DNA of 64,000 bases from a virus (IMGVR_UViG_3300042307_001176:1-64000); one strand, 5' to 3'; shown: positions 9 to 38,399, counted from the stretch's first letter. Numbers and translations are program-made. The notes: generated by a model from the letters alone, not told the origin.

Positions 9-518
9 ATGAAACACGTAAAATTATTTGAACAATTTATGAGTTCAGATTCTTCTGCTACTTATAAGGACGTTACAAGAATGGGAGAATCAGTATTCTT
101 ATTCCATGAAGAAGACTCAATTTGGTATGGTATATTTCCAAATGATGTTGCAGAGGAACTTAGAGATGTTTCCGAATCCTATAAAGAAGTTGCAGTTAAG
201 TTTGGATCGGATGAGAATTTATACGACATTTTGATTGACGGAAGAGAAGGACTTGCTTATATCGAATGGGAGAGTCAAAATGAATGGAGAGCTTGCACCA
301 CAGGAGAAATTAATGTGGATGATTACGAATACATTACTATGCCAGACGGAACGGATGTGGAGACAAAAGGCACACCGAAATATGGAGGTCTTCCTTTATT
401 TGCTTTAGAAAGAGGAATGATCACTCATTATCAAGGAAACAATGGAACAGAATCTATGTCTGTTGACGATTTCTTTGATCATTTAGATGACGAAAGCGAT
501 AATTGGGCTGGTATGTAA
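9..518 (+). CDS. acidic hypothetical protein with N-terminal MKHVKLFEQF tag
   Basis: 169 aa ORF followed by an intrinsic terminator; carries the shared N-terminal tag. Confidence 0.8.
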   Translation: MKHVKLFEQFMSSDSSATYKDVTRMGESVFLFHEEDSIWYGIFPNDVAEELRDVSESYKEVAVKFGSDENLYDILIDGREGLAYIEWESQNEWRACTTGEINVDDYEYITMPDGTDVETKGTPKYGGLPLFALERGMITHYQGNNGTESMSVDDFFDHLDDESDNWAGM

Positions 519-541
519 TCTCAGGATCTAAATAATATATT

Positions 542-566
542 AAGCCAGCTTCTAGCTGGCTTTTTT
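542..566 (+). terminator. intrinsic terminator
   Basis: AAGCCAGC-ttcta-GCTGGCTT hairpin followed by a T-run. Confidence 0.85.
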
Positions 567-610
567 GTGCGACAATAGTTTGCCCTCCGGGCTTTTAGAT
601 TTTTCTACAC

Positions 611-690
611 ACTTTGGAAGTGGCCCAGGGGGCCTTTAGCCTTAGATGGCTTGGAATTCTCTTTGGTTATGTGTGGATATATAAGATATG
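611..690 (+). repeat. ~78 bp imperfect direct repeat, copy 1 (promoter/leader cassette)
   Basis: actttgga..ggcccaggggcc..agatggctt.gaattctctt...tatgtgtg.atatataagatATG; matches 1205-1281. Confidence 0.9.
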
Positions 691-1173
691 ATTTACTTTG
701 TTAATGCTTGGGAGATTACAGATGGATCTGCAGGACCGTATCGCACTTATAGATTATATTCCGGTGATTCTCCTGATGAAATAAAATTTAATTTAGTTAG
801 AGATTTAAAAGACACATGGCTTGATGTTTCTAAGAAGATTGATAATTTTAAGAATCCCACTAATATGGATTTCGGACAGATCGGTGATTTCTTCACCGAT
901 GTTATAGATGGGAAGGATGATTACATAACGGATTGTCACATAGAAATTAGTGCACCTTATACTAATATACAAGAGGCTGCGAGATTTTATGGAAATCATT
1001 TGGATGATGATGAGGAGTTTCCTGATGCTGAATTGGAATTTTACTCTTATGGTGAATTCGCTAAAGAATTGGAGAAAGTGCTTCCTCTACTAAGTGCTTT
1101 AGTTAGGGACTATAATGTCCATATTAGTCCAGATATAGTTACCCGTCTTTTAGCAAGAGGACTGATAAAATGA
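688..1173 (+). CDS. acidic hypothetical protein
   Basis: 161 aa ORF after a GATATATA box; ends LLARGLIK, similar to the next ORF's MIKRGII. Confidence 0.75.
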   Translation: MIYFVNAWEITDGSAGPYRTYRLYSGDSPDEIKFNLVRDLKDTWLDVSKKIDNFKNPTNMDFGQIGDFFTDVIDGKDDYITDCHIEISAPYTNIQEAARFYGNHLDDDEEFPDAELEFYSYGEFAKELEKVLPLLSALVRDYNVHISPDIVTRLLARGLIK

Positions 1174-1204
1174 TCACATTTTTTATTCGAAGAAAATATT
1201 CTTA

Positions 1205-1281
1205 ACTTTGGATATGGCCCAGGGGCCGTGATCTAAGATGGCTTAGAATTCTCTTGAATTATGTGTGATATATAAGATATG
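1205..1281 (+). repeat. ~77 bp imperfect direct repeat, copy 2
   Basis: aligns with 611-690 through to the ATG. Confidence 0.9.
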
Positions 1282-1800
1282 AAAGGATGGATTATAGATT
1301 ACCAGGCCAATGGGGGTCCTGATTACACTTTTAGAAAGATCATGGTTATCATTGATAAGGATGAAGAATCTGCTAAGAAAATATTTATAGAGCATGATGA
1401 GTATCCTAATGGCGAAGATTATTTGTTATGGGGATTTGAGGCGATGGTTACTGAGATAGTTGAAGAGGATCCAGAAGAGTATATGACTGGTGCTGGTTGG
1501 TCAATGAGTGTTAATTCGTATGATTATTATGAACGTGTCTCTTCTAATGAGCCATCGTATAAAGATTTTTATTTCGATACGGAGGATCCTAGTATTAAAG
1601 ATTTATATGATAGTATGGTTGCTATACTTCCTTCTATCAATGATTATATCAAGGATAAAATCGGAATAAGTTCACATTATAAAATTGATGATTTAATAGA
1701 AAGTATTGATTTAGATAATGGTGAATTTGAATTTCTTCTAGTTCCTGGAATTTCTCCTGTGTCTATTTTAAAGACTATGATTAAAAGAGGCATCATTTAG
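1279..1800 (+). CDS. acidic hypothetical protein, probable distant paralog of 688..1173
   Basis: GGPDYTFRK vs AGPYRTYRL, similar C-terminus, duplicated leader. Confidence 0.75.
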   Translation: MKGWIIDYQANGGPDYTFRKIMVIIDKDEESAKKIFIEHDEYPNGEDYLLWGFEAMVTEIVEEDPEEYMTGAGWSMSVNSYDYYERVSSNEPSYKDFYFDTEDPSIKDLYDSMVAILPSINDYIKDKIGISSHYKIDDLIESIDLDNGEFEFLLVPGISPVSILKTMIKRGII

Positions 1801-1901
1801 ATCTATATTGAGGCTGTTAAGGGTTATAGAAAAAATTGTATCATTTGGGTTTATTTTTATTTACTAGGAATATTCTTAATCTTGGATATATAATATAGCA
1901 T

Positions 1902-2441
1902 ATGAAACACATTAGAATATTTGAATCATTTAATCTTAGCGAAGCAGGTACTGGATACAATTCGTGGAAGGCGTATGGAGATATTAATGATCTAGCTGAT
2001 ACACTTAATAAAAAAATAACCTTCGAAAGAAATATTAGAGCTACTTTTAAAGGAATTCCAGGAATGGAGAAGATTATGGCTAAAGCTAGAATGATAATGC
2101 CTGTTATTGTAAAGAATGCTTGGGACTTCCATAAATTTATGGAGGTATTTGATATATTAGGTAATCCTCCTATGGGCGTATTTGATTTATCTACATCTTC
2201 TGATTTAAGTTCATTAGAATCTCTTAATGATGCTGCTGAAGGATTCTATGTGTTACGCAATAGTACTATGGTGGATACGAATATTTTAAATAGGATTGGA
2301 CAAAAATCGCCTGAAGCTGTTTTTATTAAGATTGAAGAACGTAAATTATCATCTAGTGAAACTGATGAAGCTGTAAGATATGCTCAAGCAGGTAACTATG
2401 TGATGCTACAAGAAGACCCGGATTTCTTTATATTATTATAG
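1902..2441 (+). CDS. hypothetical protein with N-terminal tag (MKHIRIFESFNLSE)
   Basis: 179 aa ORF; GATATATA at 1885. Confidence 0.8.
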   Translation: MKHIRIFESFNLSEAGTGYNSWKAYGDINDLADTLNKKITFERNIRATFKGIPGMEKIMAKARMIMPVIVKNAWDFHKFMEVFDILGNPPMGVFDLSTSSDLSSLESLNDAAEGFYVLRNSTMVDTNILNRIGQKSPEAVFIKIEERKLSSSETDEAVRYAQAGNYVMLQEDPDFFILL

Positions 2442-2996
2442 GCTTTTTAACCTATCTAAAGGAAATCTCTCAATAGAATATTTAGTTACAATAGCACTAG
2501 AATCCCTTAGGCTTTGCATCAAGTTATTGTATACGTCTGAGATGTCTACGGTTTTTGTAATGATCATTCCTGCTTCTTGAGCTTTCTTCGCTATGAAGTT
2601 GGCATATATCTTAGATCTTCTTTCGTCTCCTTGAGATTCAGATTTAGCTACCACTATAATAGATGCTAGGTCTCCTCCTTTGCTTCTTTCTTTAGCCCAT
2701 TCCTTTACTGCCCACCACACACTTCCCATAACATCCTGCATGTTGTTTCTTCCTGTGAGTGAGTCTGAGTATTCTGTGTCTGTGATTTTTGATTTAGATG
2801 CAAAATGTATTTCCAGAGTGGCTGTGTTGTCTTCCCACCTTCTCACCATGATGAACACTTTGTATATAGCTCCGTCTATTTCAAATTCGTATGTGATATC
2901 TTCATCTCTTGCTGGGATTCTATTTATGACATTGATGTCTGGGATTGTGTCCCACATCTCATTAATGAATTTGGAGTATTGAAAAATATTTTTCAT
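2436..2996 (-). CDS. hypothetical protein with N-terminal tag (MKNIFQYSKFINE); start moved to 2996
   Basis: the internal Met gives the tag and lies just downstream of a minus-strand GATATATA at 3002-3009. Confidence 0.75.
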   Translation of the reverse strand: MKNIFQYSKFINEMWDTIPDINVINRIPARDEDITYEFEIDGAIYKVFIMVRRWEDNTATLEIHFASKSKITDTEYSDSLTGRNNMQDVMGSVWWAVKEWAKERSKGGDLASIIVVAKSESQGDERRSKIYANFIAKKAQEAGMIITKTVDISDVYNNLMQSLRDSSAIVTKYSIERFPLDRLKSL

Positions 2997-3001
2997 TCTA
3001 T

Positions 3002-3024
3002 TATATATCTTTTTTTGATATATA
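3002..3024. promoter_or_regulatory. back-to-back divergent GATATATA boxes (putative late promoters)
   Basis: TATATATC 3002-3009 and GATATATA 3017-3024, each 4-5 nt from a start codon on its own strand. Confidence 0.75.
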
Positions 3025-3028
3025 GCAT

Positions 3029-3469
3029 ATGATATTAGCATACGATAAATTTATACTCGAAAAAAAAGGACCTTGCTGGGCTGGCTACAAGCAAATTGGA
3101 ACCAAAGATAAAGACGGTAGACCTGTACCTAACTGTGTGAAAGAAAATTCCGGGGTAAACGAGGAAAAAGAGACCATTCAAGAATTTGCAGAAAATAGAT
3201 TAGCAGGTGCAACAAAAATATCTAAGGCTGCAAAAGAAAAAGGTGGCGATGCTTTATTAACATATCATCATTTTCATGTTAAACTTCCTTATTACCAAAA
3301 AAGTGTAGATGGCGAATTAGATATGGAGTCTCTTAAATCTGAGTATGACGATTTACTTACAGATCTTTATGAAGCCACTAGAAACTCTATGAATATATCT
3401 CAGGTGAAATTTCAAGAGCTTGTAGGTAAAATAGAGGTTGTAGGAGAGTTACTAATTGAAAATAAATAA
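3029..3469 (+). CDS. hypothetical protein with tag and CWxGY..GxxVPNCV module
   Basis: MILAYDKFILE followed by PCWAGYKQIGTKDKDGRPVPNCVKE. Confidence 0.75.
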   Translation: MILAYDKFILEKKGPCWAGYKQIGTKDKDGRPVPNCVKENSGVNEEKETIQEFAENRLAGATKISKAAKEKGGDALLTYHHFHVKLPYYQKSVDGELDMESLKSEYDDLLTDLYEATRNSMNISQVKFQELVGKIEVVGELLIENK

Positions 3470-3488
3470 ATAAAATTCTCGTAAAATC

Positions 3489-3512
3489 AAAAAGACCTTA
3501 GGGTCTTTTTTT
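3489..3512 (+). terminator. intrinsic terminator
   Basis: AAAAAGACC-ttag-GGTCTTTTT followed by T. Confidence 0.8.
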
Positions 3513-3540
3513 GTGTGATAATAATTAGATATATAGTAGT

Positions 3541-4788
3541 ATGAAACATCTTAAGTCATTTGCACTTTTTGAAAGTAAGACGCACAGTTTAGAGCTTCCT
3601 ACGAATGAGAATGAGTTAGCTAAATTAAAACAAATGCCATCCTTTAGAAATTTACAATCTCTAATACCCAGAATGGTAATCGACCTTAATATAATTAGAG
3701 GAGGTTCTATTAGAATAGATGGACCTTCGTATGATTTTAAGATCACTAAGAATGGTGTTTTTTATTATGGTGCTTATCAAGTGGGACCACAGAATGCTAA
3801 ATTGGATACATGGGATAAAGTTTTTGATTATGTGTACATTTATTATTTGGCTAATGCTTTATCAAGAGGAGTAAAATCTTCTGAATTTGAAGATTTTGTT
3901 TTTGGCGGAATTATTGGTAGTAACACATATAATAAGATAAAGGGCAACAAATTTTATCAAAATGTATTAGAACTTAGTAGAAAATATAATGGGGATTTAG
4001 CAGATCAAGCTGTTACTAAAGCGATGGCGGAATCAGATAAATATATTAGTGATCCCATGAAGGTTTTAGAGACTCCTTCATATAAGTTTTTCGATTCTAT
4101 TTTAGATTTCTCTCCTAGTATTTCTGATAATGATCCTTACGAATTAGTGGTCACATTAAAAAACGTAACACCGCTAGGAGTTTTTAATAAAGGCGAAGGA
4201 CTATTTCTTAATAGTAAAATAGATATCACATTAGAAGGATCTCCTGAGGTTGGAACTTTTAAAACGAAGGTTAAAACATTCAAAGGTTTAGATAAAGCAT
4301 TTCTAAATAAAATTAAAGAATTCTCTAAACAGACTATCGCAACATGGAGAATGGATGAGATTTCTGTAATAAAATCTAATACCGCTATTCAGATATTAAA
4401 AGATATTATAGCAGCATATGAATCCGGTGATTCCTACACCCCCGATCCTTTAGATATGGTCAAGGCGAAAATTTTAGAAGTGTTAAATAATTGGGATTAT
4501 AATAAGATAGAAGAATTCTTTAAAACTGTTTCTGAATTATTAGGTGATAAAGATCTAAGAGTGATTGTTGAGGAATATGCTAATAGTGAATCTGGTAAAT
4601 CTAAGATGCGTAAGATGTTATTAGATTTAAAAAATAATAATGTATTAGATTATGCTAAAGTGGGTAAAGAATGGGGTAACAATCCAATTTTTGCTGATGT
4701 ATTTAGCGATATAATGAGAGACGATGCTAGTATGATAAAAGGAGGATCTATGATGAGAAGATTTGGATTCGGAGATGATAAGAATTAA
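3541..4788 (+). CDS. hypothetical protein with N-tag and C-terminal KGGSMMRRFG
   Basis: 415 aa; GATATATA at 3528. Confidence 0.8.
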   Translation: MKHLKSFALFESKTHSLELPTNENELAKLKQMPSFRNLQSLIPRMVIDLNIIRGGSIRIDGPSYDFKITKNGVFYYGAYQVGPQNAKLDTWDKVFDYVYIYYLANALSRGVKSSEFEDFVFGGIIGSNTYNKIKGNKFYQNVLELSRKYNGDLADQAVTKAMAESDKYISDPMKVLETPSYKFFDSILDFSPSISDNDPYELVVTLKNVTPLGVFNKGEGLFLNSKIDITLEGSPEVGTFKTKVKTFKGLDKAFLNKIKEFSKQTIATWRMDEISVIKSNTAIQILKDIIAAYESGDSYTPDPLDMVKAKILEVLNNWDYNKIEEFFKTVSELLGDKDLRVIVEEYANSESGKSKMRKMLLDLKNNNVLDYAKVGKEWGNNPIFADVFSDIMRDDASMIKGGSMMRRFGFGDDKN

Positions 4789-4800: not shown

Positions 4801-5523
4801 ATGAAACATATAAAACTATTTGAAGCTTTTTTAGCTAAGAAAAATCCGGTCTATAAAAAACCAGAGTATGAGTTTAAAGAATTCTACCGAGTTTTTAAGA
4901 ATTATCCGGAGTTAAAGGCTCTTCTTCCTTCTGATATTGATCAGAAGATATTTGACATCAAAGCAGACGGATTTAATGGCGAGCCTAAATGGTTAGAAAA
5001 ACACGTAGATCCACCTAGTAAGTCTGACGAGATCACAACTGAAGCACTTTTAATACTAGCGGAGCAGAATGACCCAAGGTTTATTCCCCTTATTATTTGG
5101 TGTCGTGAATTGTTTGAACAAGGGGAGATGGAAAAGATGCCTTTAGATTATATACGTCCAAGATTAAGTTCTAATTTTAAGAATCACGATTGGGATGCTT
5201 TAGAAAAAAATCCAGATTTTTTAGATGAATGTGAGAGAGAATACAATAAAGCAATCGCTGCAGGATTAGATGATGCGACTATTAGTAACACATTAGGTCT
5301 TGTACAGAAGTATCCTGATATCACTATAAACATGGCTCAATTCTGGATTTACATAAAAGGATCAATAGCTCATTTTAATCGTGTCGAAGCCAGCGGAGGA
5401 GAATTACCTTGTACTCAGTTTATACTATATAGAGGTAACTATTACACTGTGGGTGGTAGAAGAAGAATGTTCTGGCATTTCTATAATCATGTTGATCCTA
5501 CTGTTTGGGTAATAGGTATATAA
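4801..5523 (+). CDS. tagged hypothetical protein, possible ParB/Srx-like C-terminus
   Basis: MKHIKLFEAF; YYTVGGRRRM weakly resembles the ParB-N GxxR motif. Confidence 0.6.
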   Translation: MKHIKLFEAFLAKKNPVYKKPEYEFKEFYRVFKNYPELKALLPSDIDQKIFDIKADGFNGEPKWLEKHVDPPSKSDEITTEALLILAEQNDPRFIPLIIWCRELFEQGEMEKMPLDYIRPRLSSNFKNHDWDALEKNPDFLDECEREYNKAIAAGLDDATISNTLGLVQKYPDITINMAQFWIYIKGSIAHFNRVEASGGELPCTQFILYRGNYYTVGGRRRMFWHFYNHVDPTVWVIGI

Positions 5524-7909: not shown

Positions 7910-7952
7910 AATATCTTAAATCTAATATATAATTCATAGAGATATATAGTAT

Positions 7953-8591
7953 ATGAAGCATATTAAATCAATAGACCAATTTATTAATGAACAATTATTT
8001 CCGGATGCTAACATACTTGCTAAAGCATTAGGCTTCGGAGATAAATCAGAGGAGACCTCGACTTCTACTCCTAGCGGTCCTGTATCTCCTACAAGAAATG
8101 ATGAGTCTTCTTGTCCAAATAATGACTGTTGGACTCATTTTGGAAAGGAAGCATTTTGGAATGGGGTAAGTAAAGTTAACGATAAAACAGTTCCTAAGAT
8201 TGCTATAAATAAAACTCCTACCGCTTTTAATATTATTTATGATGGCCCACAATCCGGATTTCTTCTTAAACATGCTAAAGGAGGTAAAGGAGATACCATA
8301 CATCAGCTTCTGAATGTGCTAACTTTAGAATTAAATGAATACCTTAAAACTATTAGTGCCAAGCCAGATATTAAAAATATTAAAATGGAATTAGGAGGAA
8401 ATAAGTTAGTTGTGTCTGTTCCTTTAACAAAGATCCAAGATGGCAAACATTATGAGATAGCAAGAAGAGGAGGATTAGGTCATTCTGGCGATTATAGCGG
8501 ACTTGAAAAATATGAAGGTAAAGAAGGCTATGAAGAGGTTATACATAAATCTGGAAATCTCACCGAAAAATTCGTAACTGCAATAGCATAA
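7953..8591 (+). CDS. tagged hypothetical protein (MKHIKSIDQFINEQLF)
   Basis: GATATATA at 7941; S/T/P linker follows the tag. Confidence 0.8.
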   Translation: MKHIKSIDQFINEQLFPDANILAKALGFGDKSEETSTSTPSGPVSPTRNDESSCPNNDCWTHFGKEAFWNGVSKVNDKTVPKIAINKTPTAFNIIYDGPQSGFLLKHAKGGKGDTIHQLLNVLTLELNEYLKTISAKPDIKNIKMELGGNKLVVSVPLTKIQDGKHYEIARRGGLGHSGDYSGLEKYEGKEGYEEVIHKSGNLTEKFVTAIA

Positions 8592-8594: not shown

Positions 8595-9071
8595 ATGAGA
8601 AATATTTCTAAATACGAAGACTTTGTAAATGAATCTGGAATTTATGCTCATCCCACAGGTGAAGCCACAGATTGGGTTCAGCTACATAAGCCAGATACTG
8701 CATATAAATTTTGTGTGGTTAAGAAGACAATGAGAAAACATGGTGAGGATTATGCTACACATTCTGCTCTTAGAATCAAAGGACCTAATGGTGTTAAAGA
8801 TTATAAGATCACTTCTAAATCTCCAATTTATCAAGGTGGAGTGACTCTTTCTGATTTTTGGAAAAGCACTAGAGGAGATTTCTATGTTATCAGAGACAAT
8901 GAAGGTGAAAGGAGAAAGATTGAAGCAGCGGATATGAAAAAGATTATTCAAATTTATAATTCAGAAGACAAACAAATCCCTGTACCCACATATGATAATT
9001 CTTCTGATGCTAAGTCAAAGATTGTAGATCTTATATTTAATATAACACCTGATTGGAAGAATATCAAATAA
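8595..9071 (+). CDS. tagged hypothetical protein (MRNISKYEDFVNE)
   Basis: 158 aa ORF, 3 nt after the previous stop. Confidence 0.75.
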   Translation: MRNISKYEDFVNESGIYAHPTGEATDWVQLHKPDTAYKFCVVKKTMRKHGEDYATHSALRIKGPNGVKDYKITSKSPIYQGGVTLSDFWKSTRGDFYVIRDNEGERRKIEAADMKKIIQIYNSEDKQIPVPTYDNSSDAKSKIVDLIFNITPDWKNIK

Positions 9072-11017: not shown

Positions 11018-11425
11018 TTATTTCAATTTATAATAATCTATTCCATTGGTGATTATTCCATAAAGCGGAGAATCAACAATGAACGAATAAGAGTTATCTA
11101 AAATTATTTCAGAAAGCTTAGAAAAATCTCTAGTTGATACTAGGATAACCGTGGGTCTTTCTCTTATATTATATCCGTGTGGACTTATTACTATCTGTTT
11201 GTTTAATATCTTAGATAGATCATTAACTCTTACCATAGTGATTGATCCTGGTTCTTGCCATTTATTAGATCCTGCAGAAATATATTCTGCTTCTATATTG
11301 GGATCTACTGCAACTATAAAAGGCGTTTTACCTTTATTAGATATCATAGATTCTATACCTCCTATTGATATTGGTGTAGGCTCTTTTTCATTAAAGAAAT
11401 TTTCAAAAAGTATTAAGTGTTTCAT
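11018..11425 (-). CDS. tagged hypothetical protein (MKHLILFENFFNE)
   Basis: 135 aa ORF coupled to the upstream gene. Confidence 0.75.
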   Translation of the reverse strand: MKHLILFENFFNEKEPTPISIGGIESMISNKGKTPFIVAVDPNIEAEYISAGSNKWQEPGSITMVRVNDLSKILNKQIVISPHGYNIRERPTVILVSTRDFSKLSEIILDNSYSFIVDSPLYGIITNGIDYYKLK

Positions 11426-12783
11426 ATTCTTGTCCAGTTGAGGTTATTAAGAATTTTATTTTTAATTAAATATTCTTTGTACATCTCTTTTATTTGTTCT
11501 TCTGACCCTATCCCTTTTTCTTTAGCAATCGATTTAATAGCAAAAGGTTGAGCAGCATCAATGTATCTATATTTTGGTATTTGCATTTTAACTTGATTTA
11601 TTAAAGCAAAAACTCTAGCTCCTATTTCTAATCTTTGTTTTGCTGTTAATGTATATGTTTCGTGTGATATTTGACTATTGAATGTGTACAGAACATACCC
11701 TATTATATTGTTTTCTATTCTTTTTTTAATAGATTCGTCATTAATATCTGGAATTATATTATCTATGTCAGCTTCTGCTTTTCTTATTGCATTACGTTTT
11801 TTGTAGTTGTCTATAATATTATCAAATAAATTACTGGATAATAAAGCCTCTTGTGTTTTATTTGAAGTGATATCTATTATTCCTGCAAGAATCTCGATTA
11901 TTTTATTTGATATATTTGCAAAATCTACAAAATGCTGGGTGTTATCATCTATTATGAGCATTTTTCCAGTATCCCCGTTTTCGTTACCAAATACGCAATC
12001 TACTACCGCGTCAACGAATTCTTCTTTTGCTGTATTATATTTAGGTCTAAGAAGGGATCTTACACTTCCTTTAATACCTGTTGATTTAATATTAAATGAG
12101 GGATTTTCTTCACCACCTTCTATTCTTTCTCTAAGACTTTTTGCTATTCTTTTTGCCCAATCTTCTACAAGAGAAGCAGTGGTAGAAAATCTATCTATAG
12201 GGTTTTTATCAGAATCAAATCTGGGTATTTCCATTTCCCTTTGGATAGCTCTTTCTAAAGCTTCTTTATCTATTGCATCATCTGCATTAAAGTAATCAAT
12301 CTTAGTTAAATCTATTACATTTGCTTCCGGGTATAAATTTAATAAAGAATCTCTCATAGTTTTTACTAATCCCTGTGATGATCCCACAGTAACTATATAG
12401 TTTATATTCTTCGATGATAAATTTTTAATTGCAGTTCCTTGAATAAATCCTTCTAACGTTTCTCCTGTGGCCATTGAAAAAATATCAGGGTTTGAATCTT
12501 TAAGATTATTCATGATGTATCCCTTAGCTCTTTGAGATGCTGGATCTCCGTTTGCTCCCCTTACCCCTGAATAAGGTGTTTTGGGATGTAATCCATAATA
12601 AACTTTAATACCTCCCATACCAACTTTATTAAAGTTGTCTCCATTTAGATATGGGGTTTTTAATAATTCGTTCGGATTATTAGGATCATTTTTTAAAGAA
12701 ACAAAAACTTTTACATTTTTCCCATTTTCCTCGTACCAAGCACCCTCGTTGATAAAATTTATAAATGATTTTAAATGTATCAT
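11422..12783 (-). CDS. tagged protein, possible phosphoribosyltransferase-like fold
   Basis: MIHLKSFINFINE; YIVTVGSSQGL and MLIIDDN resemble PRTase motifs. Confidence 0.6.
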   Translation of the reverse strand: MIHLKSFINFINEGAWYEENGKNVKVFVSLKNDPNNPNELLKTPYLNGDNFNKVGMGGIKVYYGLHPKTPYSGVRGANGDPASQRAKGYIMNNLKDSNPDIFSMATGETLEGFIQGTAIKNLSSKNINYIVTVGSSQGLVKTMRDSLLNLYPEANVIDLTKIDYFNADDAIDKEALERAIQREMEIPRFDSDKNPIDRFSTTASLVEDWAKRIAKSLRERIEGGEENPSFNIKSTGIKGSVRSLLRPKYNTAKEEFVDAVVDCVFGNENGDTGKMLIIDDNTQHFVDFANISNKIIEILAGIIDITSNKTQEALLSSNLFDNIIDNYKKRNAIRKAEADIDNIIPDINDESIKKRIENNIIGYVLYTFNSQISHETYTLTAKQRLEIGARVFALINQVKMQIPKYRYIDAAQPFAIKSIAKEKGIGSEEQIKEMYKEYLIKNKILNNLNWTRI

Positions 12784-13372: not shown

Positions 13373-13942
13373 ATGAAATACATTCTTTCTTCTAGACAAT
13401 TTGAAAATTTAGAATCTGGTAGTAATACTGATTTAAAATCATATCTAATCAGTTATGGTATTTCTATTAATGAATGGGGTAAAGGTTACGCAAAAACTAT
13501 AGAACATTTAGCGAAAGAAATAGAATCCAATGAATGTTCGCTGGTGGATAAAAATGGTGTTCTTGTAAGAGAGATAGAATTTGTAATGTGCGAGATATTT
13601 TATAAAGGTCTTAAACTAAAAGAAGAAAAACAAATATTTAAAGACGGAAGAGAAAGAACTAGAGTGAAAGAATCTTCAATGTCGGAGAAAATGGAAATAG
13701 GTGAAGACCCTTTGAATTCTTTAATTCGCGGAATAGCAGAAGAACTTGGTGTTGATGTCAGAGAGGATCAATTAATATCAGGTGGTTCAATAGACAGAGA
13801 AGGTGGATCTAGATCATTTCCTGGACTTACTACAAGATATATTGGGCACAAATACTCCTGTACTTTCGATGAATCTCAATATAATCCTGCGGGATATGTA
13901 GAGCACCAGAAAGATAAATCTACATATTTTATATGGGAATGA
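13373..13942 (+). CDS. tagged Nudix-fold-like protein
   Basis: EKMEIGEDP.NSLIRGIAEELGV resembles the Nudix box. Confidence 0.7.
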   Translation: MKYILSSRQFENLESGSNTDLKSYLISYGISINEWGKGYAKTIEHLAKEIESNECSLVDKNGVLVREIEFVMCEIFYKGLKLKEEKQIFKDGRERTRVKESSMSEKMEIGEDPLNSLIRGIAEELGVDVREDQLISGGSIDREGGSRSFPGLTTRYIGHKYSCTFDESQYNPAGYVEHQKDKSTYFIWE

Positions 13943-16505: not shown

Positions 16506-16525
16506 TCTATATTAATATATAGAAC

Positions 16526-17236
16526 ATGAAATATCTAAAAACATTCGAATCTATTACTGGACAGGATACAAGTAGTATTGACCGTATGAAAGCAAAATAC
16601 CCTAATGGTGTAGATATTCCTAAGGAAGTAAAAGCAACAGGATCAGGGAATTTTAAAATTGGTGTAGACTCTTTAGATCAAGCATCTAAGAAGTTTACTG
16701 AAATAGTTCAATTAATTAATGATCTTCTACTGAATACCAATGGCACAGTTAAAGTTGTTGTTGATAGCGGTGCTTCTGCAGTAGGAGCTAAAGGATTTGA
16801 TAATCAAGGATTAGCAGAAAGAAGAAGAGACAAAACTATAGAGGATCTAAATAATTACCCTTTTGTTGACAAAAAAAGAATTCAATTTATTAAAGGTAAA
16901 GCCACTGTAGGTAAAGCCACTATTAAAAATTCTCCAGAAGCTGAAGCTGAACAATTTGTTACTGTTTCTATATCAGGCACTGGCAGTATAAACGTTCCTA
17001 TTACGGGTGTACAAGGTGATAATACTAATGTTTATAGACCGGAATTATTTAAGGCAGATCTGATTAAAAAGAATGTAATAGATGATGATATAATTAATAT
17101 TAAGATAAAAAGAGTTTGTGTACAAATGCCCGAACAATATGTTGAGGATTTTAAAAAAGCTGTATGGAAATTTAAACAAGATCAAAGTATTACCAATCTT
17201 CCCTTAGGAGTCTATGATATAAATCCCAAAAAATAA
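16526..17236 (+). CDS. tagged protein with OmpA-C-like motif
   Basis: MKYLKTFES; SGAS...NQGLAERR...EQFV resembles OmpA-like N..LS..RA. Confidence 0.6.
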   Translation: MKYLKTFESITGQDTSSIDRMKAKYPNGVDIPKEVKATGSGNFKIGVDSLDQASKKFTEIVQLINDLLLNTNGTVKVVVDSGASAVGAKGFDNQGLAERRRDKTIEDLNNYPFVDKKRIQFIKGKATVGKATIKNSPEAEAEQFVTVSISGTGSINVPITGVQGDNTNVYRPELFKADLIKKNVIDDDIINIKIKRVCVQMPEQYVEDFKKAVWKFKQDQSITNLPLGVYDINPKK

Positions 17237-30024: not shown

Positions 30025-31650
30025 ATGAGTTATATAGAATCTTTTCAGTCTTTTCACTTAAGAAATATGGGGATAGACTATGACGACCTTTTTTCTTTAC
30101 AAGAAAATAAATCACAAGCAAAATATTCATTTCAAGAATTTAAAAATTACTTCTCCGACTTTCTTTTAGAAAGTGAGGGATATATTGACGAGTCTCTTTT
30201 AGAGAATTCTTTTGCTTTTTATGAATGCTCTATGCTTTACGAAGCAAAATCACATTGGTTTGAAGGAGCTGGGATTGGTAATTCTGATTATTTAGATTGT
30301 GGTACACATGCACTTGTTATTAAAGACGGGGAAGGATTTTTAATAGAGAAGATAACATTCAATAAAATAAACGAATGGCTTACCATGGATGATATCCATA
30401 AAGCTTGGGGAAATTTAAAAAAATCAGCAGGTAATGCCTGGGATAAAGGCGAAAAGATTATAAAATCAGCAGGTAAAGCAATATCTTACGGAGCAGAGAA
30501 AGCTTGGAGCTTTTTAAAATCTTGCGGAAATGCAGTAGTAAAATTCGTACAAGGAATGACATTCTTAGAATGGGCCGCACTAGTATTTAGTATACTTTCT
30601 GCAGTTCTTGGTATAGCTGGAGCTGGTGCATCTGCAACTGGTCTTGGAGCATTACTTATACCAATTGGCGGTCTATGTCAGATGATTTCTGGAGGTATTC
30701 ACCTATATGAGGGATGGCACAAATACGACGGTGCAATTAAAGCATTTGGTAAAGGCGGTATTAGTCCGGAGCAGAAATTTTATACTGCTTTAGCTACGGC
30801 TCTTCCTGAGGGTTTGGTTGGTACTTTGTTACTTCTATTGGGAATAAATGATGTTATAACAGGAGCAGGAGGATTAGTTGATCCTAGTGCTGGCGCAAGA
30901 GCAGTTGCAACTAACACTTCCGCTAAAATGACACTGAAAGGATTTTTAAAAGCACCGGGAGCAGCTATAGAAAAAGGAATTGAGGATTTAGGAATGCATG
31001 CTTTAAAAAAAGCTGGCATATCATTATCCCACGCAGCAGCAGAGGGAATGGGTAAAGTTGCAACAACAGTTTTTGCTACTGTAGCCCCTGCAATATTAAG
31101 TTCAATGTTTACATGGTTATTTAAGTCTTTGTTAGAAGTTGGTAGCGGGATAACAAAAGGGATAGATGCACTAATTAACATTCCTGCTAAAATATCGGAT
31201 TCAATTTCTAAATTCCAAAAAGGAGCAAAAGGAGGTTTAGGCGGATTACTAGCTAAGGGATTATCAACAGTTGTTAAACCTATGACTGATTGCGCAGCCA
31301 AAGTTATTAAAAAGTATATACAACCAATGGTAGACAATGTTAAAAATTGGTTTAAGAATCAGCTTGCATCATATGACAAGAATAAAAAAATAATGGACGA
31401 GTATATGCACGAATTGCATACAGGAAAGAAACACGATCACAAGGAAGAAAAAAAGGGCAAGCCTGTATTCAATGTCGACAAGATAAAAGAATTATCAAAG
31501 AAAGAGGTTGAGTTGATAAAAACTGCTGCAGATAAATCTAAATCCGAAACAGGATCGAAAGACAAAAATAACAAAAAGAAAAAAGTGAAAGAATCACAAG
31601 TCTGGGAAATGAACTATCTTAGATCATTTGATGATTTAGAATTTATTTAA
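30025..31650 (+). CDS. large Gly/Ala-rich protein with hydrophobic helices; tag-like motifs at both ends
   Basis: GATATATA at 29996; MSYIESFQSF ... MNYLRSFDDL; hydrophobic segments around residues 180-360. Confidence 0.7.
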   Translation: MSYIESFQSFHLRNMGIDYDDLFSLQENKSQAKYSFQEFKNYFSDFLLESEGYIDESLLENSFAFYECSMLYEAKSHWFEGAGIGNSDYLDCGTHALVIKDGEGFLIEKITFNKINEWLTMDDIHKAWGNLKKSAGNAWDKGEKIIKSAGKAISYGAEKAWSFLKSCGNAVVKFVQGMTFLEWAALVFSILSAVLGIAGAGASATGLGALLIPIGGLCQMISGGIHLYEGWHKYDGAIKAFGKGGISPEQKFYTALATALPEGLVGTLLLLLGINDVITGAGGLVDPSAGARAVATNTSAKMTLKGFLKAPGAAIEKGIEDLGMHALKKAGISLSHAAAEGMGKVATTVFATVAPAILSSMFTWLFKSLLEVGSGITKGIDALINIPAKISDSISKFQKGAKGGLGGLLAKGLSTVVKPMTDCAAKVIKKYIQPMVDNVKNWFKNQLASYDKNKKIMDEYMHELHTGKKHDHKEEKKGKPVFNVDKIKELSKKEVELIKTAADKSKSETGSKDKNNKKKKVKESQVWEMNYLRSFDDLEFI

Positions 31651-32340: not shown

Positions 32341-32357
32341 TACACGATATATAAATA

Positions 32358-32990
32358 GTGAAAAACATAAAATTATTTGAAAATTTTGATTCTAAGTACT
32401 TATGGCCAGAAGCTAAATTTTGGATTGATAAGTTAGAACCGGAAGAATTATGTTTTCTTGGTGTTTATTCTTACATGTTAGAGAATGATAAAAAACAACC
32501 ATTATTTGAGACTGAATATGACGGAACAAATGAAACAGATCCCGATGAACAAGATGGCGATGGAAGTTTGGAAATGTCATTTACTTTCCCTGTAGCAAAA
32601 GCTGAATATTCTCCTAGTTTAACGTGTGAGATCATATTTAGCGGTGATTATTTACCTTATGATCCTGGAGATTATATGAATGCCCCAGAAGGAGGAGAAT
32701 ATGTATTAAATAACATTGATATTGAATCTGCTTATTATTTAGATAAAGACGAAGTCAACGATTACGAATTGGCCAATATGGAATATAAATCCGAATTTGT
32801 TACCAAATCGGATATGATTAATCTATTAAAATATATTGCTAGTTATTTTATAAGACATGACGAAGATAGTACGGATTCTAAACCCCCAGTTATTCCACAG
32901 GGTCTGAAAGATAAATGTGAAAATTTAAGGAAAGAAATGCCTAATGTTACTAAAGGGTATGGAATGATCAGTAGATTTACTGGTAAGTAA
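32358..32990 (+). CDS. acidic tagged protein with C-terminal KGYGMISRF
   Basis: GTG start 4 nt after GATATATA (32346); MKNIKLFENF. Confidence 0.8.
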   Translation: MKNIKLFENFDSKYLWPEAKFWIDKLEPEELCFLGVYSYMLENDKKQPLFETEYDGTNETDPDEQDGDGSLEMSFTFPVAKAEYSPSLTCEIIFSGDYLPYDPGDYMNAPEGGEYVLNNIDIESAYYLDKDEVNDYELANMEYKSEFVTKSDMINLLKYIASYFIRHDEDSTDSKPPVIPQGLKDKCENLRKEMPNVTKGYGMISRFTGK

Positions 32991-33672: not shown

Positions 33673-33701
33673 AGATATATAATCTATAAAAAAATATTAA
33701 A

Positions 33702-34136
33702 ATGAAATATATTAAGCTTTTTGAAAATTTTGATTCTAATATAGGAAGCACAGACGATCTAATTTTTGATTGGATGCCTTTCGACGATCAAATAACTAAT
33801 CCGATACAATCATCTATACCAGAGACTCTTTCTATTACTGAATTGGCAGATTTTTTAATGTCTGCAGAAAAAAATGGAAATGATTCACAAATATTAGAAG
33901 CAGGTCTTTTTATGTCTCATAGAAAAAACTCAGATGGGGGATTTAATAGATTTATTACTAAATCAATTTCTCCTTTAATGTTCGAGATTGAGGTATTTAA
34001 TTCAGATTTTGAATCTGTTAATAAATTTGAAAATGTTGATGCTAGTAAGATGGGTAATTTAGGTGCATTTAATAAAGGCGCATCTATGTTAGGAAAATTT
34101 GGTCTTTTTGGTAAAGGTGGAAAAGAACAATTATAA
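33702..34136 (+). CDS. tagged protein with C-terminal KGASMLGKFG
   Basis: MKYIKLFENF; GATATATA at 33674. Confidence 0.8.
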   Translation: MKYIKLFENFDSNIGSTDDLIFDWMPFDDQITNPIQSSIPETLSITELADFLMSAEKNGNDSQILEAGLFMSHRKNSDGGFNRFITKSISPLMFEIEVFNSDFESVNKFENVDASKMGNLGAFNKGASMLGKFGLFGKGGKEQL

Positions 34137-34160
34137 GTAAAACATTGTTAATAAATTATT

Positions 34161-34190: not shown

Positions 34191-34246
34191 ATGCTTTTTT
34201 ATTTAATAATAGTTGATATATAATCAATAAATAATTTTTTTAAAAA

Positions 34247-35137: not shown

Positions 35138-35175
35138 ATATTATATATTACACCTTCTTTAATATATAGTGATAT

Positions 35176-35484
35176 ATGAACAATATTATTTTAAATAGGC
35201 TAGAAATAATGTTTGAGGATCTTCCTAATAAAATGCCATGGACATCAGTTGCAGGAGAACTTGAAGCATTGGGGGGAAACGGATGGAGATTACCTACCGA
35301 ATTGGAATTTAAAGATATCTATAACTTTTCTAAATTAGGAATAGGTGGATTTAAGCCAGAAAAATATTGGTCAGCATCTTCATCTGGTAATAAAGCTTGG
35401 TATTACAATTTAGGCAAAGGATATTCACCACACATTACTAATCAATCTAATCAATTGTATGTGAGATTAGTTAGAAATATCTAG
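35176..35484 (+). CDS. DUF1566/Lcl-type (C-lectin-like fold) small protein
   Basis: GWRLPT.LE, KYWS, AWY, YVRLVR. Confidence 0.8.
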   Translation: MNNIILNRLEIMFEDLPNKMPWTSVAGELEALGGNGWRLPTELEFKDIYNFSKLGIGGFKPEKYWSASSSGNKAWYYNLGKGYSPHITNQSNQLYVRLVRNI

Positions 35485-35702
35485 TATTGATCCTGGTTTC
35501 TTATTCTAGACAAAGACTTATCTATGGATCTGTCTAAATCTTCCGTTGCTTTTCTTAAATCCTGATTGTGTATAGAAGATAAAGATCTTGCTATTTCATA
35601 TCTGTCTAAAAATACTTCGTATTTATAATTTTTCTCTTTTAAGATAACTTCATCAGCAATTTCTTTTCCAAATTCTTCTAATTGTTTTTCGTAAGACTTC
35701 AT
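35481..35702 (-). CDS. hypothetical protein
   Basis: 73 aa ORF. Confidence 0.6.
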   Translation of the reverse strand: MKSYEKQLEEFGKEIADEVILKEKNYKYEVFLDRYEIARSLSSIHNQDLRKATEDLDRSIDKSLSRIRNQDQY

Positions 35703-35811
35703 GGGGTTTTATATTAGTTTTTTGTAAATGTAAGAATTTACTACATATAATTGTATATTATATATTCGAAATAATTTCATTCTCTCACACTATAATTAAA
35801 TAAAAAAGAAT

Positions 35812-36792
35812 ATGGCAAAGAAGAAAGGTCCTATATCAATGTTTATAGAAAGAAATTACAAGCATTTTAATGCCGCTGCATTAAAAGATGCAGCAATTGG
35901 CTACGAGACTCACATAGATAAGGGAGGTAAAATGCTAGTTTCGCTTGCTGGTGCAATGAGTACAGCAGAGCTAGGTATTTCTTTAGCAGAAATGATTAGA
36001 GCTGGTAAAGTTGATATTATCTCTTGTACTGGAGCTAACTTAGAAGAGGATCTAATGAATCTCGTAGCACATTCACATTATAAAAGAATACCAAATTATA
36101 GGGATCTTACACCCGAGCAAGAAAGAGAATTGCTAGACCAAGGTTTAAATAGAGTTACTGATACATGTATTCCCGAAGAAGAGGCTTTTAGGAGATTACA
36201 ATCACATATCTATAATCTTTGGAAAGAAGCAGAAGATGTGGGAGAAAAATATTTTCCACATGAATTCATGTATATGTTAATTAATAGTGGTGTTCTCACA
36301 CAGTATTATGAGATTGATCCTAAGGACTCTTGGATGGTTGCTGCAGCAGAAAGAAATCTACCGATGGTTGTACCTGGATGGGAAGATTCAACATTAGGGA
36401 ATATATTTGCTTCTTATGTTATAAAAGGCGAATTAGACCCGAATACTGTAAGAAATGGTATTGAATATATGGTTTATCTTAGTGAATGGTACAGAAATAA
36501 TTGTTCAGAGCCTGGAATAGGATTTTTCCAAATTGGCGGAGGCATTGCTGGTGATTTTCCAATATGTGTTGTTCCGATGATGTATCAGGATCTTGAATGG
36601 GAAGATGTGCCATTCTGGTCTTACTTCTGTCAAATATCAGATTCAACAACATCTTATGGATCTTACTCAGGAGCAGTACCGAATGAGAAAATAACATGGG
36701 GTAAATTGGACGCAGACACTCCAAAATTTATAGTAGAATCTGATGCAACGATAGTTGCTCCTCTTATATTTGCTTGGATACTTAATCAATAA
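35812..36792 (+). CDS. deoxyhypusine synthase-like protein (possible homospermidine synthase)
   Basis: AGAMST, TGANLEED, NRVTD, DSTLG, IGGG, GSYSGA.PNEKITWGK, SDATIVAPL. Confidence 0.9.
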   Translation: MAKKKGPISMFIERNYKHFNAAALKDAAIGYETHIDKGGKMLVSLAGAMSTAELGISLAEMIRAGKVDIISCTGANLEEDLMNLVAHSHYKRIPNYRDLTPEQERELLDQGLNRVTDTCIPEEEAFRRLQSHIYNLWKEAEDVGEKYFPHEFMYMLINSGVLTQYYEIDPKDSWMVAAAERNLPMVVPGWEDSTLGNIFASYVIKGELDPNTVRNGIEYMVYLSEWYRNNCSEPGIGFFQIGGGIAGDFPICVVPMMYQDLEWEDVPFWSYFCQISDSTTSYGSYSGAVPNEKITWGKLDADTPKFIVESDATIVAPLIFAWILNQ

Positions 36793-36906
36793 ATACATTA
36801 TCAAATAAAACCCTCGTATTCTTTTGATATATAGTAGATGATAAGATCCTGTATTATTATAGGACTATTTTTTATATTAGGTTATATACATAATAGAAGT
36901 AATAGA

Positions 36907-37623
36907 ATGAAGCATTTGAAATCAATAGATGAGTTTAAACAAGTAAACGAACAATTGTTTGGAAACATTACTAGGGAGCTTACTAAAGGTATTTTAAAAA
37001 ATGATGATTCTAAATCTAAAGATGATAGTGGAGGAACAGGAGGAGCAGGAGGAGGAACAGGGCCTGCACCAGATAAGGCAGCAGGAGTTGTAGGAGATTA
37101 TGGCAAATTTAGTGATGGTGCAAGTAAATCATCGCCATTAGCTATTGTTTTTGGGGGAATTCCAGTAGGCGGGAAACAAAGTGGAGAGTATATGTACGAT
37201 TACTTTAATAAAACAGGAAACAAGTTTAATCTTTTTGTCGCATCTAATTCAAATGTCAATGGTAAGGCTTCTTATGATTCAGTAATTAAAAAAGATATAA
37301 CTCCATCTAAAAAGATACTTTATTTATTTTCTGGGGGATATAAACCAGGAATGGAATTATTAAAAAGTGTTGGTGCTGATAAATTTGATAAAATCTATCT
37401 AGTTGATATTTGGATGGGTAATTCTTCTGTATCAGATTTCTACACTAAACTAGCTAAAGACAATAAAGAAAAAGTTGAATATTATTATACCAGTTTTGGA
37501 GCAAATAATAATACAGCAAGAAATACTATCTCGCAGACTGTTTCAAAATCTGTAGCAAATAGCAAAAATAATCACATGGAGACAAACAATGATGCAGTTG
37601 AGGCATTGATAAAATATATTTAA
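36907..37623 (+). CDS. tagged protein with alpha/beta-hydrolase-like domain; start likely 36907
   Basis: MKHLKSIDEFKQVNEQLF, Gly-rich linker, IVFGG, LYLFSGG (nucleophile-elbow-like), LVD, C-terminal H. Confidence 0.65.
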   Translation: MKHLKSIDEFKQVNEQLFGNITRELTKGILKNDDSKSKDDSGGTGGAGGGTGPAPDKAAGVVGDYGKFSDGASKSSPLAIVFGGIPVGGKQSGEYMYDYFNKTGNKFNLFVASNSNVNGKASYDSVIKKDITPSKKILYLFSGGYKPGMELLKSVGADKFDKIYLVDIWMGNSSVSDFYTKLAKDNKEKVEYYYTSFGANNNTARNTISQTVSKSVANSKNNHMETNNDAVEALIKYI

Positions 37624-37625
37624 TA

Positions 37626-38399
37626 ATGAAACACCTTAAAACCATAGAGAATTTTAAAATTGTAAATGAACAATTATTTAAGGCTGATATAGCTATGTTT
37701 AATAAACTAATGGGAATATCTGTTGAAGAAACTGGAATAGCAGAACCTAATCTTTTTCCAGCCGAAGCTCCTTCTGGGTTAGGACAAGCATTAGCTCCTA
37801 TAGCTAATATAAATACTGACCAAATGGATTCTTACGGATCTACTGCGGGAATAATGGATAAGAATGACGGTGCTGATTATAAACAACCCCTTAGAGGTCC
37901 TATAGGAAATATAGTCAATTCAGCTTATGCTAATCTTAATGTACCAACAAGAAAAATACCAGGAACAGGAGGGGGTAATCTAGGATGTGCAGCAGCTGTT
38001 TCTATTATATTTTATAGAGCAACTGGATATGCTATAGCTGGATCTGGAGCTATCACTCTTGGTACAGGATCTCTTTGGAGTTACATGAGTAAAGAAAGTG
38101 AAAAAAGCGACGGTGTTTGGAAAAAAATAACAGATTGGAAAACAGGATCACAACCTGGCGACATAATTCTAACTGCTAGAGGATCAAAAGCTGGTCACGT
38201 AGGTGTTGTTATAAATGGAGGAAATATAATTTCTAATTCATCCGGGGGATTTAAAGGAGATAAAAAAGGACAGATTGAAATGAACTATAACTTGAATAGC
38301 TGGTCTAGTGTTGCTGCAAGAAATCCTTCACAAACTGCAGCATTCAGATATGTAGGTCCATATAAAAAAACATGGGGATCTGAAGCTCAGTTAGCATAA
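37626..38399 (+). CDS. tagged NlpC/P60-CHAP-like peptidoglycan hydrolase
   Basis: GCAAAVS, PGDIILT, GHVGVV, ISNSS. Confidence 0.75.
   Translation: MKHLKTIENFKIVNEQLFKADIAMFNKLMGISVEETGIAEPNLFPAEAPSGLGQALAPIANINTDQMDSYGSTAGIMDKNDGADYKQPLRGPIGNIVNSAYANLNVPTRKIPGTGGGNLGCAAAVSIIFYRATGYAIAGSGAITLGTGSLWSYMSKESEKSDGVWKKITDWKTGSQPGDIILTARGSKAGHVGVVINGGNIISNSSGGFKGDKKGQIEMNYNLNSWSSVAARNPSQTAAFRYVGPYKKTWGSEAQLA

Follow-up and report, generated by a model that had tools for sequence, protein, structure and literature searches.

A short N-terminal peptide shared by about 30 unrelated proteins of an uncultured T4-type jumbo phage is a candidate head-loading tag

The window analyzed here (64,000 nucleotides, positions 1–64,000 of IMGVR_UViG_3300042307_001176) is part of a 154-kb contig that, as judged from its sequence, is a fragment of an uncultured T4-type jumbo phage of roughly 230–290 kb, whose host probably belongs to the phylum Bacteroidota. 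The contig, which is 66% complete according to CheckV, encodes T4-type portal, terminase, sheath and tube proteins and a phage sigma factor (PHROG 1740). Its close relatives by terminase identity are G019 (87%) and G020 (81%), and G007 is a complete relative. About 30 unrelated proteins of the contig, weaker variants included (18 encoded in the window and 12 elsewhere on the contig), share their first 10–13 amino acids, with the consensus M-K-H-[ILV]-K-x-[FY]-E-x-F and often [ILV]-N-E behind it. The initial annotation had listed the 18 N-termini of the window; all are present where, and on the strand on which, it placed them, the sole difference being a GTG start at 32358.

The first tagged gene (9–518, plus strand; 169 aa), at the contig edge, encodes a protein without known domain that begins MKHVKLFEQF and scores 25.5 bits. 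It is followed by a gene of 179 aa (1902–2441, plus strand; MKHIRIFESFNLSE) with GATATATA 9 nt upstream and by one of 186 aa (2436–2996, minus strand; MKNIFQYSKFINE) with GATATATA 5 nt upstream. A variant tag, MILAYDKFILE and then KKGPCW, opens a protein of 146 aa (3029–3469, plus strand; GATATATA 4 nt upstream); a tag-like start and KKGPCW also open P0105, one long homologue of the hydrolase encoded at 37626. The gene at 3541–4788 (plus strand; 415 aa; MKHLKSFALFE) is an operon leader with GATATATA 5 nt upstream, and that at 4801–5523 (plus strand; 240 aa; MKHIKLFEAF, 26.2 bits) is operon-internal, with no box of its own. A protein of 212 aa (7953–8591, plus strand; boxes 4 and 21 nt upstream of its gene) begins with MKHIKSIDQFINE and continues with QLF, as a member of the NEQLF subgroup. 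Next come two operon-internal genes of 158 aa (8595–9071, plus strand; MRNISKYEDFVNE) and 135 aa (11018–11425, minus strand; MKHLILFENFFNE), and one of 453 aa (11422–12783, minus strand; MIHLKSFINFINE) with a box 64 nt upstream. The gene at 13373–13942 (plus strand; 189 aa; MKYILSSRQFENLE) has AATATATA 4 nt upstream; its G007 homologue aligns from residue 20 and appears to have no tag.

Further along, the gene at 16526–17236 (plus strand; 236 aa; MKYLKTFES) has boxes 4 and 21 nt upstream, and that at 17257–18819 (plus strand; 520 aa) carries the variant tag MEYRNILNFSSYTQIFE; the G020 homologue of the latter opens with a similar variant ending in INE. A protein with three hydrophobic segments (30025–31650, plus strand; 541 aa; box 21 nt upstream) begins MSYIESFQSF. 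The gene with the GTG start (32358–32990, plus strand; 210 aa; box 4 nt upstream) continues with KNIKLFENF (24.7 bits), and that at 33702–34136 (plus strand; 144 aa; MKYIKLFENF; box 20 nt upstream) has a tagged homologue in G020. Both of the last two genes have tags continued by QLF. One (36907–37623, plus strand; 238 aa; MKHLKSIDEFKQVNE) has a box 81 nt upstream and also an in-frame ATG 23 codons upstream (36838) with a box of its own, and the other, operon-internal (37626–38399, plus strand; 257 aa; MKHLKTIENFKIVNE), encodes an NlpC/P60 (CHAP-like) peptidoglycan peptidase.

This peptide is confined to gene starts. A weight matrix built from 16 N-termini, Met ignored, was scanned over the whole contig (163,729 positions in six frames), the wider search that the initial annotation had in mind, and gave 27 matches of at least 9 bits: 23 are ATG or GTG starts of ORFs of 82–541 aa, one is a start shifted by one residue (M-L-K-H-L-K at 101550) and three fall in short non-coding frames. 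Random peptides with the N-terminal composition of the untagged genes, taken overall or position by position, predict 0.02–0.04 tagged starts among 219 genes, compared to 24 observed; therefore, AT-rich 5′ codon bias, which had been named beforehand as what could undo the claim, does not explain the tag.

The box [GA]ATATATA, which we infer to be a promoter, lies 4–21 nt before the start in 11 of the 18 tagged genes of the window; six others are operon-internal or operon leaders with the box further upstream (12783 and 36907), and gene 9 is at the contig edge, so that the box indeed precedes most tagged genes or their leaders, as first described. The GATATATA box is common to the tagged genes and to the tail sheath, tail tube, portal and neck-like genes, and the view that the tagged genes are late genes, expressed with the structural genes, is supported. 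Since this box often stands just 4–5 nt before the ATG of the tag, the tag might be a functionless remnant of a mobile cassette, made up of a late promoter and first codons, that recombined before new genes. This seems highly improbable to us, and codon choice largely refutes it: two occurrences of one amino acid within the tag share their codon in 62% of cases vs 56% expected from genome codon usage. The codons of the tag are thus as variable as genome usage permits, which points to selection on the peptide and bears out the earlier remark that conservation is at the peptide level. Furthermore, tags are found on the box-less operon-internal genes 4801, 8595, 11425 and 37626, homologues from genomes with 81–87% terminase identity retain the tag at the amino-acid level, and a box at 4-nt spacing serves untagged genes too. 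Overall, a portable tag under peptide-level selection is supported.

The proteins behind the tag are unrelated, as had been claimed: pairwise BLASTP of the bodies (residues 17 onward) gave nothing better than E = 0.02. A homologue in G007 was found for seven of the 30 tagged genes compared to 79 of the 153 untagged ones, and tagged genes are replaced faster than untagged ones, like the internal proteins of T4. The tagged proteins are mostly soluble, 28 of the 30 having no membrane segment. Most of the fold labels proposed at first were not reproduced: among 29 tagged proteins of the contig, the only Pfam domains are CHAP/NlpC-P60-like (37626), in agreement with the CHAP-like label, and PAP2 (69436, outside the window), and no Nudix, OmpA or PRTase domain was found. 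Tagged proteins of related contigs include a lysozyme, a Zn protease and nucleotide-modifying enzymes; the tagged NT5C, cytidylyltransferase and GNAT proteins look like ordinary cytoplasmic enzymes, for which a need of packaging is not obvious.

The best characterized cargo is the product of gene 37626 (Pfam CHAP, 25.3 bits; 143 homologues). In the alignment of its NlpC/P60 family, the Cys121/His191 pair is invariant, while the tag differs in sequence and length between clades; the Glu at the tag end is at least 90% conserved and precedes a variable linker, and some of the most distant homologues have hydrophobic, signal-peptide-like N-termini in place of the tag. The AlphaFold2 model shows residues 1–40 at low confidence (a helix, then disorder), apart from a body that has a confident NlpC/P60 fold (Foldseek). 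A separate endolysin (PG_binding_1 and GH19) is present and untagged.

The initial annotation had noted a resemblance to the T4 capsid-targeting sequence, and this likeness holds. The T4 ipII and ipIII products begin MKTYQEFIAE and then A (read from NC_000866); in IPIII, residues 4 and 7 serve targeting and residues 8 and 10 processing, and the cleavage motif of gp21 is L/I-X-E (PMC9026906). In both systems, a short N-terminal peptide is carried by unrelated, fast-evolving, late proteins, with a hydrophobic or aromatic residue at position 4 (Y4 in T4), Phe at position 7 (F7 in T4) and, often in the present tags, an [IL]-x-E end followed by a small residue. Gene 94643, beyond the window, even begins MKTFKDFIYE-KINE. 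Among 319 unique tags collected with a search pattern that partly fixes positions 4 and 7, position 4 is I, L or V in 97% and position 7 is F or Y in 97%; the 30 tags of the contig, found without this pattern, have the same residues there. An extreme N-terminal peptide shared by unrelated bodies, as in a T4-type system of clip-off propeptides, is what is found here.

The T-even phages differ from the present phage by having three to five tagged genes, compared to about 30 here on half a genome, and small basic cargo proteins, whereas the cargo here includes enzymes of 80–540 aa. The usual tag is also three residues longer than that of T4, with E-x-F between Phe7 and the cleavage triplet, and the preferred putative site is [ILV]-N-E. 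Positions 11–13, outside the search pattern, are [IVL] in 55%, N in 37% and E in 56% of the 319 tags; [ILVFM]-x-E stands exactly there in 152, and A, S or G comes next in 53%. On the contig, [ILVFM]-x-E occurs within residues 9–20 of 21 of the 30 tagged vs 35 of the 153 untagged proteins (Fisher P = 1e-6), and [ILV]-N-E in 33% vs 1%. The nine other tags have no [ILVFM]-x-E in residues 9–20, and would depend on the weaker site at Glu8 or go uncleaved. N-E endings are fewer among the tags of G007. As a short motif, [ILV]-x-E is common in this AT-rich proteome (23% of untagged N-termini, residues 9–20).

No gene for a prohead protease, a scaffolding core or a main capsid protein was found on the contig (154 kb, 66% complete), all three being found only in relatives; therefore, the link to the head, although consistent, is indirect and rests on these relatives. 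Portal, capsid protein and S77 protease of the lineage are all of the T4 type. In contrast to T4, the protease is fused to its own scaffold in this clade: G019, G020 and G007 all encode an S77 protease–scaffold fusion adjoining a Gp23 capsid gene. S77 is present in all five complete tag-bearing IMG/VR genomes, and the T4 portal in 20 of 50 further tag-bearing records, including all three with a completeness of 90% or more. Tenacibaculum phage PTm1, the nearest relative in culture, is without the tag. In line with a tag restricted to phages, its pattern matches more than 120 stretches in IMG/VR, compared to 38 across 596 Gb of genomes from prokaryotes, and these 38 are nearly all MAG contigs. 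In each of G019, G020 and G007, the fusion is the protein most enriched in [LIV]-N-E, the preferred ending of the tag (8 sites, P = 7e-6; 6 sites, P = 2e-4; and 8 sites, P = 3e-6, respectively). Its scaffold consists of 14-residue repeats carrying Y-[LIV]-A-E, and SLNE and then SAGAYN are conserved in the N-terminal region of the capsid protein in each of these relatives. The same motif is therefore found in the scaffold and in the N-terminal region of the capsid protein, as in a T4-type system.

We consider it fairly probable that the tag is an enlarged relative of the T4 capsid-targeting sequence, that the proteins carrying it are loaded into the head and that the tag is then clipped. The tagged proteins would be made late, from the promoter type shared with tail and portal genes. 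The amphipathic peptide (hydrophobic residue 4, Phe/Tyr 7, Phe 10) would dock them on the prohead scaffolding core, which in this clade would be the T4-type S77 protease fused to the 14-residue-repeat scaffold. After shell closure, the protease would cut behind the Glu of [ILV]-x-E, usually [ILV]-N-E at positions 11–13, releasing the mature protein inside the head, and at least some of the cargo, for example the NlpC/P60 wall peptidase, would exit with the DNA at infection. The address label for the head proposed by the initial annotation thus stands in being portable, peptide-selected, late and T4-like, while docking to the core, head entry, cleavage, head residence and ejection with the DNA are what we infer.

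It is unlikely, albeit less so than the cassette, that the tag docks another partner (a phage chaperone, tail or baseplate assembly, a site of the cell envelope) and that [ILV]-x-E is part of an amphipathic helix instead of a cleavage site. The tag is amphipathic (median hydrophobic moment 0.38 vs 0.28 for untagged N-termini, P = 4e-5), a subgroup of tags runs on with QLF and a second helix, and the nine tags without a site would suit such docking, which however leaves unexplained the enrichment of [LIV]-N-E in the protease–scaffold fusion and its conservation in the N-terminal region of the capsid protein, the small residues after Glu, and the residue-by-residue match to T4. We find it still less credible, a slim chance, that the tag is a control element through which a phage or host protease, by timed cleavage or degradation in the cytoplasm, switches late proteins on or off. 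According to PMC9026906, S77 proteases of the T4 type act within the assembled prohead, no protease except the scaffold-fused one was found to have the motif in common with the tag, and the conserved hydrophobic residues 4, 7 and 10 are needless in a pure degradation signal, although a conserved Glu before a flexible linker suits any endoprotease site and the lysozyme, Zn protease and nucleotide-modifying enzymes tagged in relatives could do harm if active early.

Loading of the head has parallels beyond T4. The N-terminal propeptides on head and ejection proteins of the giant phages SPN3US and phiKZ, which are not close relatives of the present clade, are longer and are not known to have one common sequence, whereas here one short consensus peptide is reused. 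The head of these jumbo phages is reported to pack many different proteins, which their prohead protease trims at a short motif ending in Glu (PMC5694885, PMC7411985, PMC10052503). There is no sequence similarity with the Dar system of phage P1. The Dar proteins are loaded in a set order through protein–protein dependencies, and are not known to share a short tag that is clipped off. In a parallel to the loading and delivery proposed here, anti-defence proteins are reported to enter the head of this myovirus through N-terminal determinants and to be delivered with the DNA (PMC9024508, PMC12810830).

More tentatively, and at odds well short of even, the tag might mark a clade-wide head-packaged set (6–15% of genes) that can be read from sequence, and might imitate one scaffold repeat. 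The F-x-x-F-[ILV]-x-E of the tag would then correspond to Y-x-x-Y-[LIV]-A-E of the scaffold, the two would co-assemble and the same protease would cut both. If true, wall hydrolases, an Acb1-like anti-CBASS enzyme, acetyltransferases and Nudix enzymes would belong to the packaged set, along with many proteins of no known function, and new cargo could be recruited merely by the gain of 13 codons.

All 18 N-termini that the initial annotation had listed as sharing a T4 capsid-targeting-like tag were found in the window. A weight matrix built from 16 tagged N-termini (Met excluded) and scanned at every six-frame position of the contig gave 27 matches of at least 9 bits, 24 of them at gene starts and three in short non-coding frames, with a clean gap between the scores of the tagged genes and those of all remaining genes. 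Counting weaker variants, about 30 genes of the contig carry the tag (10-13 residues, consensus M-K-H-[ILV]-K-x-[FY]-E-x-F, often followed by [ILV]-N-E). Twelve of them lie beyond the window, with starts at 66901, 68130, 68702, 69436, 85564, 87200, 90220, 90661, 94643, 95266, 101550 and 104574. AT-rich 5′ codon bias was ruled out as the cause of these starts, as 0.02-0.04 tag-like starts are expected from composition controls (random peptides generated with the N-terminal residue frequencies of untagged genes), compared to 24 observed. The bodies of the tagged proteins are indeed unrelated (best pairwise BLASTP from residue 17 on, E = 0.02), and hidden paralogy was ruled out by all-against-all BLASTP. 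The DNA is also synonymously varied, as claimed initially: 62% of the codons are identical within the tag versus 56% expected from genome usage. This codon choice, close to the genome expectation, argues for selection on the peptide and rules out DNA-level conservation or a recent copy. No further tag family was found on the contig, the remaining shared N-termini being those of true paralogues. Three DUF285-type proteins (window 60261-61718, minus strand; contig 92565-93416 and 93422-94198) have the common start M-[AS]-T-[ST]-R-[PA]-F-[SA]-Y-N, which was rejected as a portable tag because these proteins are truly paralogous. A literature search for the tag sequence found no published description.

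The window corresponds to the initial 64 kb of a linear contig (154,411 bp, 33% G+C, CheckV completeness 66%) that codes for a large terminase of T4 type, a tail sheath, a tail tube, a phage sigma factor (PHROG 1740) and two tandem T4-type portal proteins. The best portal matches are uncultured huge phages (LR756500, 47% identity), then Lak phages (33%); among cultured phages, the closest portal is that of Tenacibaculum phage PTm1 (28%), a phage devoid of the tag. Many terminase relatives are present in IMG/VR, and their completeness estimates imply a genome size of about 285 kb. Since we found no S77 (gp21-type) prohead protease and just one short Gp23-like ORF on the contig, the head module is probably located in the missing part of the genome; this absence of head genes is a weak point for the head-loading reading. 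This ORF (294 aa, minus strand, window 63526-64000, continuing to 64410) has a match limited to the central part of the capsid-protein family (50.9 bits) and is distant from the expected head-module site. The portal is usually a single-copy gene. The two portal (gp20) genes (L004:12085-13728 and L004:13735-15381, i.e., contig 136085-137728 and 137735-139381, outside the window) are 48% identical, and two portal genes are likewise present in the relatives G007 and G021.

A degenerate DNA pattern of the tag was found in more than 120 stretches among the IMG/VR matches listed. In prokaryote genomes (596 Gb), only 38 stretches carry the tag pattern, almost all of them on MAG contigs, which rules out a host-wide N-terminal signal. 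All five complete tag-bearing genomes encode an S77 protease. A T4 portal was found in 20 of 50 further tag-bearing records, including each of the three with a completeness of 90% or more; nearly all of these 50 records are fragments, whose completeness estimates imply large genomes. Our searches found no cultured relative with a virion proteome, and a phage collection gave no DNA match to the contig and no match to its NlpC/P60 cargo protein.

In T4, three small internal proteins and Alt are loaded into the head via a ten-residue tag, which is already in use to package foreign proteins for delivery; the internal protein IPI blocks a host restriction enzyme. In the T4 record, ipII and ipIII both start with MKTYQEFIAE followed by Ala. 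IPIII is incorporated into the head by virtue of its first ten residues alone: positions 4 and 7 are important for targeting, positions 8 and 10 for processing, and gp21 cleaves after L/I-X-E (PMC9026906). T4-like phages may generally use this capsid-targeting sequence to load varied proteins, as stated in the same review (PMC9026906). The tag of the present clade resembles that of T4 by a hydrophobic residue at position 4 and Phe/Tyr at position 7 but differs by its [ILV]-x-E triplet, which is located three residues later. Gene 94643 (L002:10643-11227, i.e., contig 94643-95227) starts with MKTFKDFIYE-KINE, identical to T4 at six of ten positions, with Phe instead of Tyr at position 4.

The end of the tag was analyzed in 319 unique tagged ORFs gathered with a pattern constraining positions 1-10 only. 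Positions 11-13 are [IVL] in 55%, N in 37% and E in 56% of them; [ILVFM]-x-E is found exactly at 11-13 in 152 of the 319, the next residue being A, S or G in 53%. In the contig, [ILVFM]-x-E is present within residues 9-20 in 70% of tagged compared to 23% of untagged proteins (P = 1e-6), and [ILV]-N-E in 33% compared to 1%. About 30% of the contig's tags are devoid of a clear [ILVFM]-x-E site, and this candidate cleavage motif is short and common; both are weak points for the head-loading reading. The head module of the close relatives G019 and G020 and of the complete relative G007 consists, in order, of a large unknown protein, an S77 protease-scaffold fusion and the Gp23 capsid protein. The scaffold is repetitive, with a 14-residue unit (I-S-Y-S-E-Y-L-A-E-N-L-D-K-N type) occurring up to about 16 times in tandem. 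In each of these three relatives, [LIV]-N-E enrichment is highest in the fusion, and all three capsid proteins carry SLNE then SAGAYN around residue 43. Hence, the ending preferred by the tag is the motif characteristic of the head-core proteins of this clade.

Overall, these observations are consistent with the tag being a T4-type head-loading and clip-off signal, used on a far larger scale than in T4, a reading of moderate probability; support is weakest for ejection of the tagged proteins into the host. Were the T4 device used for dozens of proteins in this clade, the cargo delivered before gene expression could be listed from sequence alone, and many unknown functions in first-minute counter-defence and host takeover could be sought in this list. 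Natural head loading would then prove to be open and modular. Packaging of foreign proteins could also benefit in practice from a second natural tag that has a protease site and a scaffold of its own, and [ILV]-N-E would provide a testable candidate cleavage motif for a phage group without any cultured member.

The S77-scaffold fusion is present in every tag-bearing genome examined (L213:7131-9176 in G020; also L128-L139 and L195), with five to about 16 repeats, whose pattern aromatic-x-x-aromatic-aliphatic-x-Glu resembles the second half of the tag. The protein encoded directly upstream of the protease (866-886 aa; L213:4444-7104 in G020, 58414-61014 on the minus strand in G019) has an internal tag-like segment (ILSFEDFYSVIEE) around residue 470 and, after it, long stretches rich in Gly, Ala and Thr.

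For the NlpC/P60 protein (37626-38399), 143 metagenomic homologues were found; their N-termini vary by clade in sequence and length (e.g., MKHLKTFDQINE, MKNLKKFKDLLNE, MNKIKNFKEWVSLSE and MYIKNFKSWNRMYE). All these examples keep the hydrophobic pattern and end with hydrophobic-x-Glu, usually followed by a small residue and then by a linker of variable length; the Glu is at least 90% conserved in 44 aligned sequences. In place of the tag, hydrophobic, signal-peptide-like N-termini are present in some of the homologues that are most distant. AlphaFold2 predicted a confident NlpC/P60 body with an invariant Cys/His pair, and a detached, low-confidence N-terminal helix followed by disorder. Taken together, these features are those expected from the evolution of a propeptide for targeting and cleavage. 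In a subgroup including this peptidase (window 7953, 36907 and 37626; contig 66901), the tag goes on into Q-L-F and a second short helix.

Among 29 tagged proteins, Pfam detected only CHAP/NlpC-P60-like (37626, slightly below the cut-off) and PAP2 (69436) domains, and PHROGs added nothing useful. The Nudix, OmpA and PRTase labels initially assigned are thus unsupported for this contig. Pfam domains were found in about 10% of 149 tagged proteins from related IMG/VR contigs and are varied: GNAT acetyltransferases, Nudix, NT5C, lysozyme, Acb1/2H-type phosphoesterase, LRV repeats, Zn protease and polymerase-beta thumb. Part of this cargo resembles ordinary cytoplasmic enzymes, another weak point for head loading. 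Membrane segments are absent from 28 of the contig's 30 tagged proteins, and their pI, slightly more basic than that of other proteins, is not informative. In G007, homologues were found for only seven of the 30 tagged genes, compared to 79 of 153 untagged genes. The tag is retained where homologues exist, except in those of 13373 and 66901 in G007, apparently devoid of it.

As reported initially, most tagged genes follow a [GA]ATATATA box, either directly or through their operon leaders; its distance to the start is 4-21 nt. The box count in the window is modestly above chance (16 versus 9.4 ± 2.7) and the placement is far from random, 14 of the 16 being directly upstream of a start in the correct orientation. 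This placement, and the presence of the same box upstream of sheath, tube, portal and neck-like genes, suggest that the tagged genes belong to the late class. The same box is used in G007 (290 kb), which has about 25 tagged genes. Among the untagged genes of the region are those of ordinary enzymes (glycosyltransferase, GGACT, NADAR) and that of a canonical endolysin (window 53919-54740), which has PG_binding_1 and GH19 (chitinase class I/lysozyme-like) domains.

The GATATATA box (window 3017-3024, 7941-7948, 16514-16521 and 32346-32353, among others) tends to be located at one of two distances from the ATG, 4-5 nt or 16-21 nt. Boxes at the 4-nt distance would generate leaderless or nearly leaderless late mRNAs. 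The tag was rejected as a translation requirement of such mRNAs, since untagged genes share the 4-nt spacing and operon-internal genes are tagged without a box. Gene 94643 has this box 4 nt upstream, and genes 7953 and 16526 have one at each of both distances. The in-frame ATG at 36838 also has the box 4 nt upstream (window 36826-36910); this ATG would put a hydrophobic 23-residue extension (MIRSCIIIGLFF...) ahead of the tag at 36907. This extension is absent from the 36907 homologue of G020, and a similar hydrophobic start is found on the gene at 45053 (minus strand).
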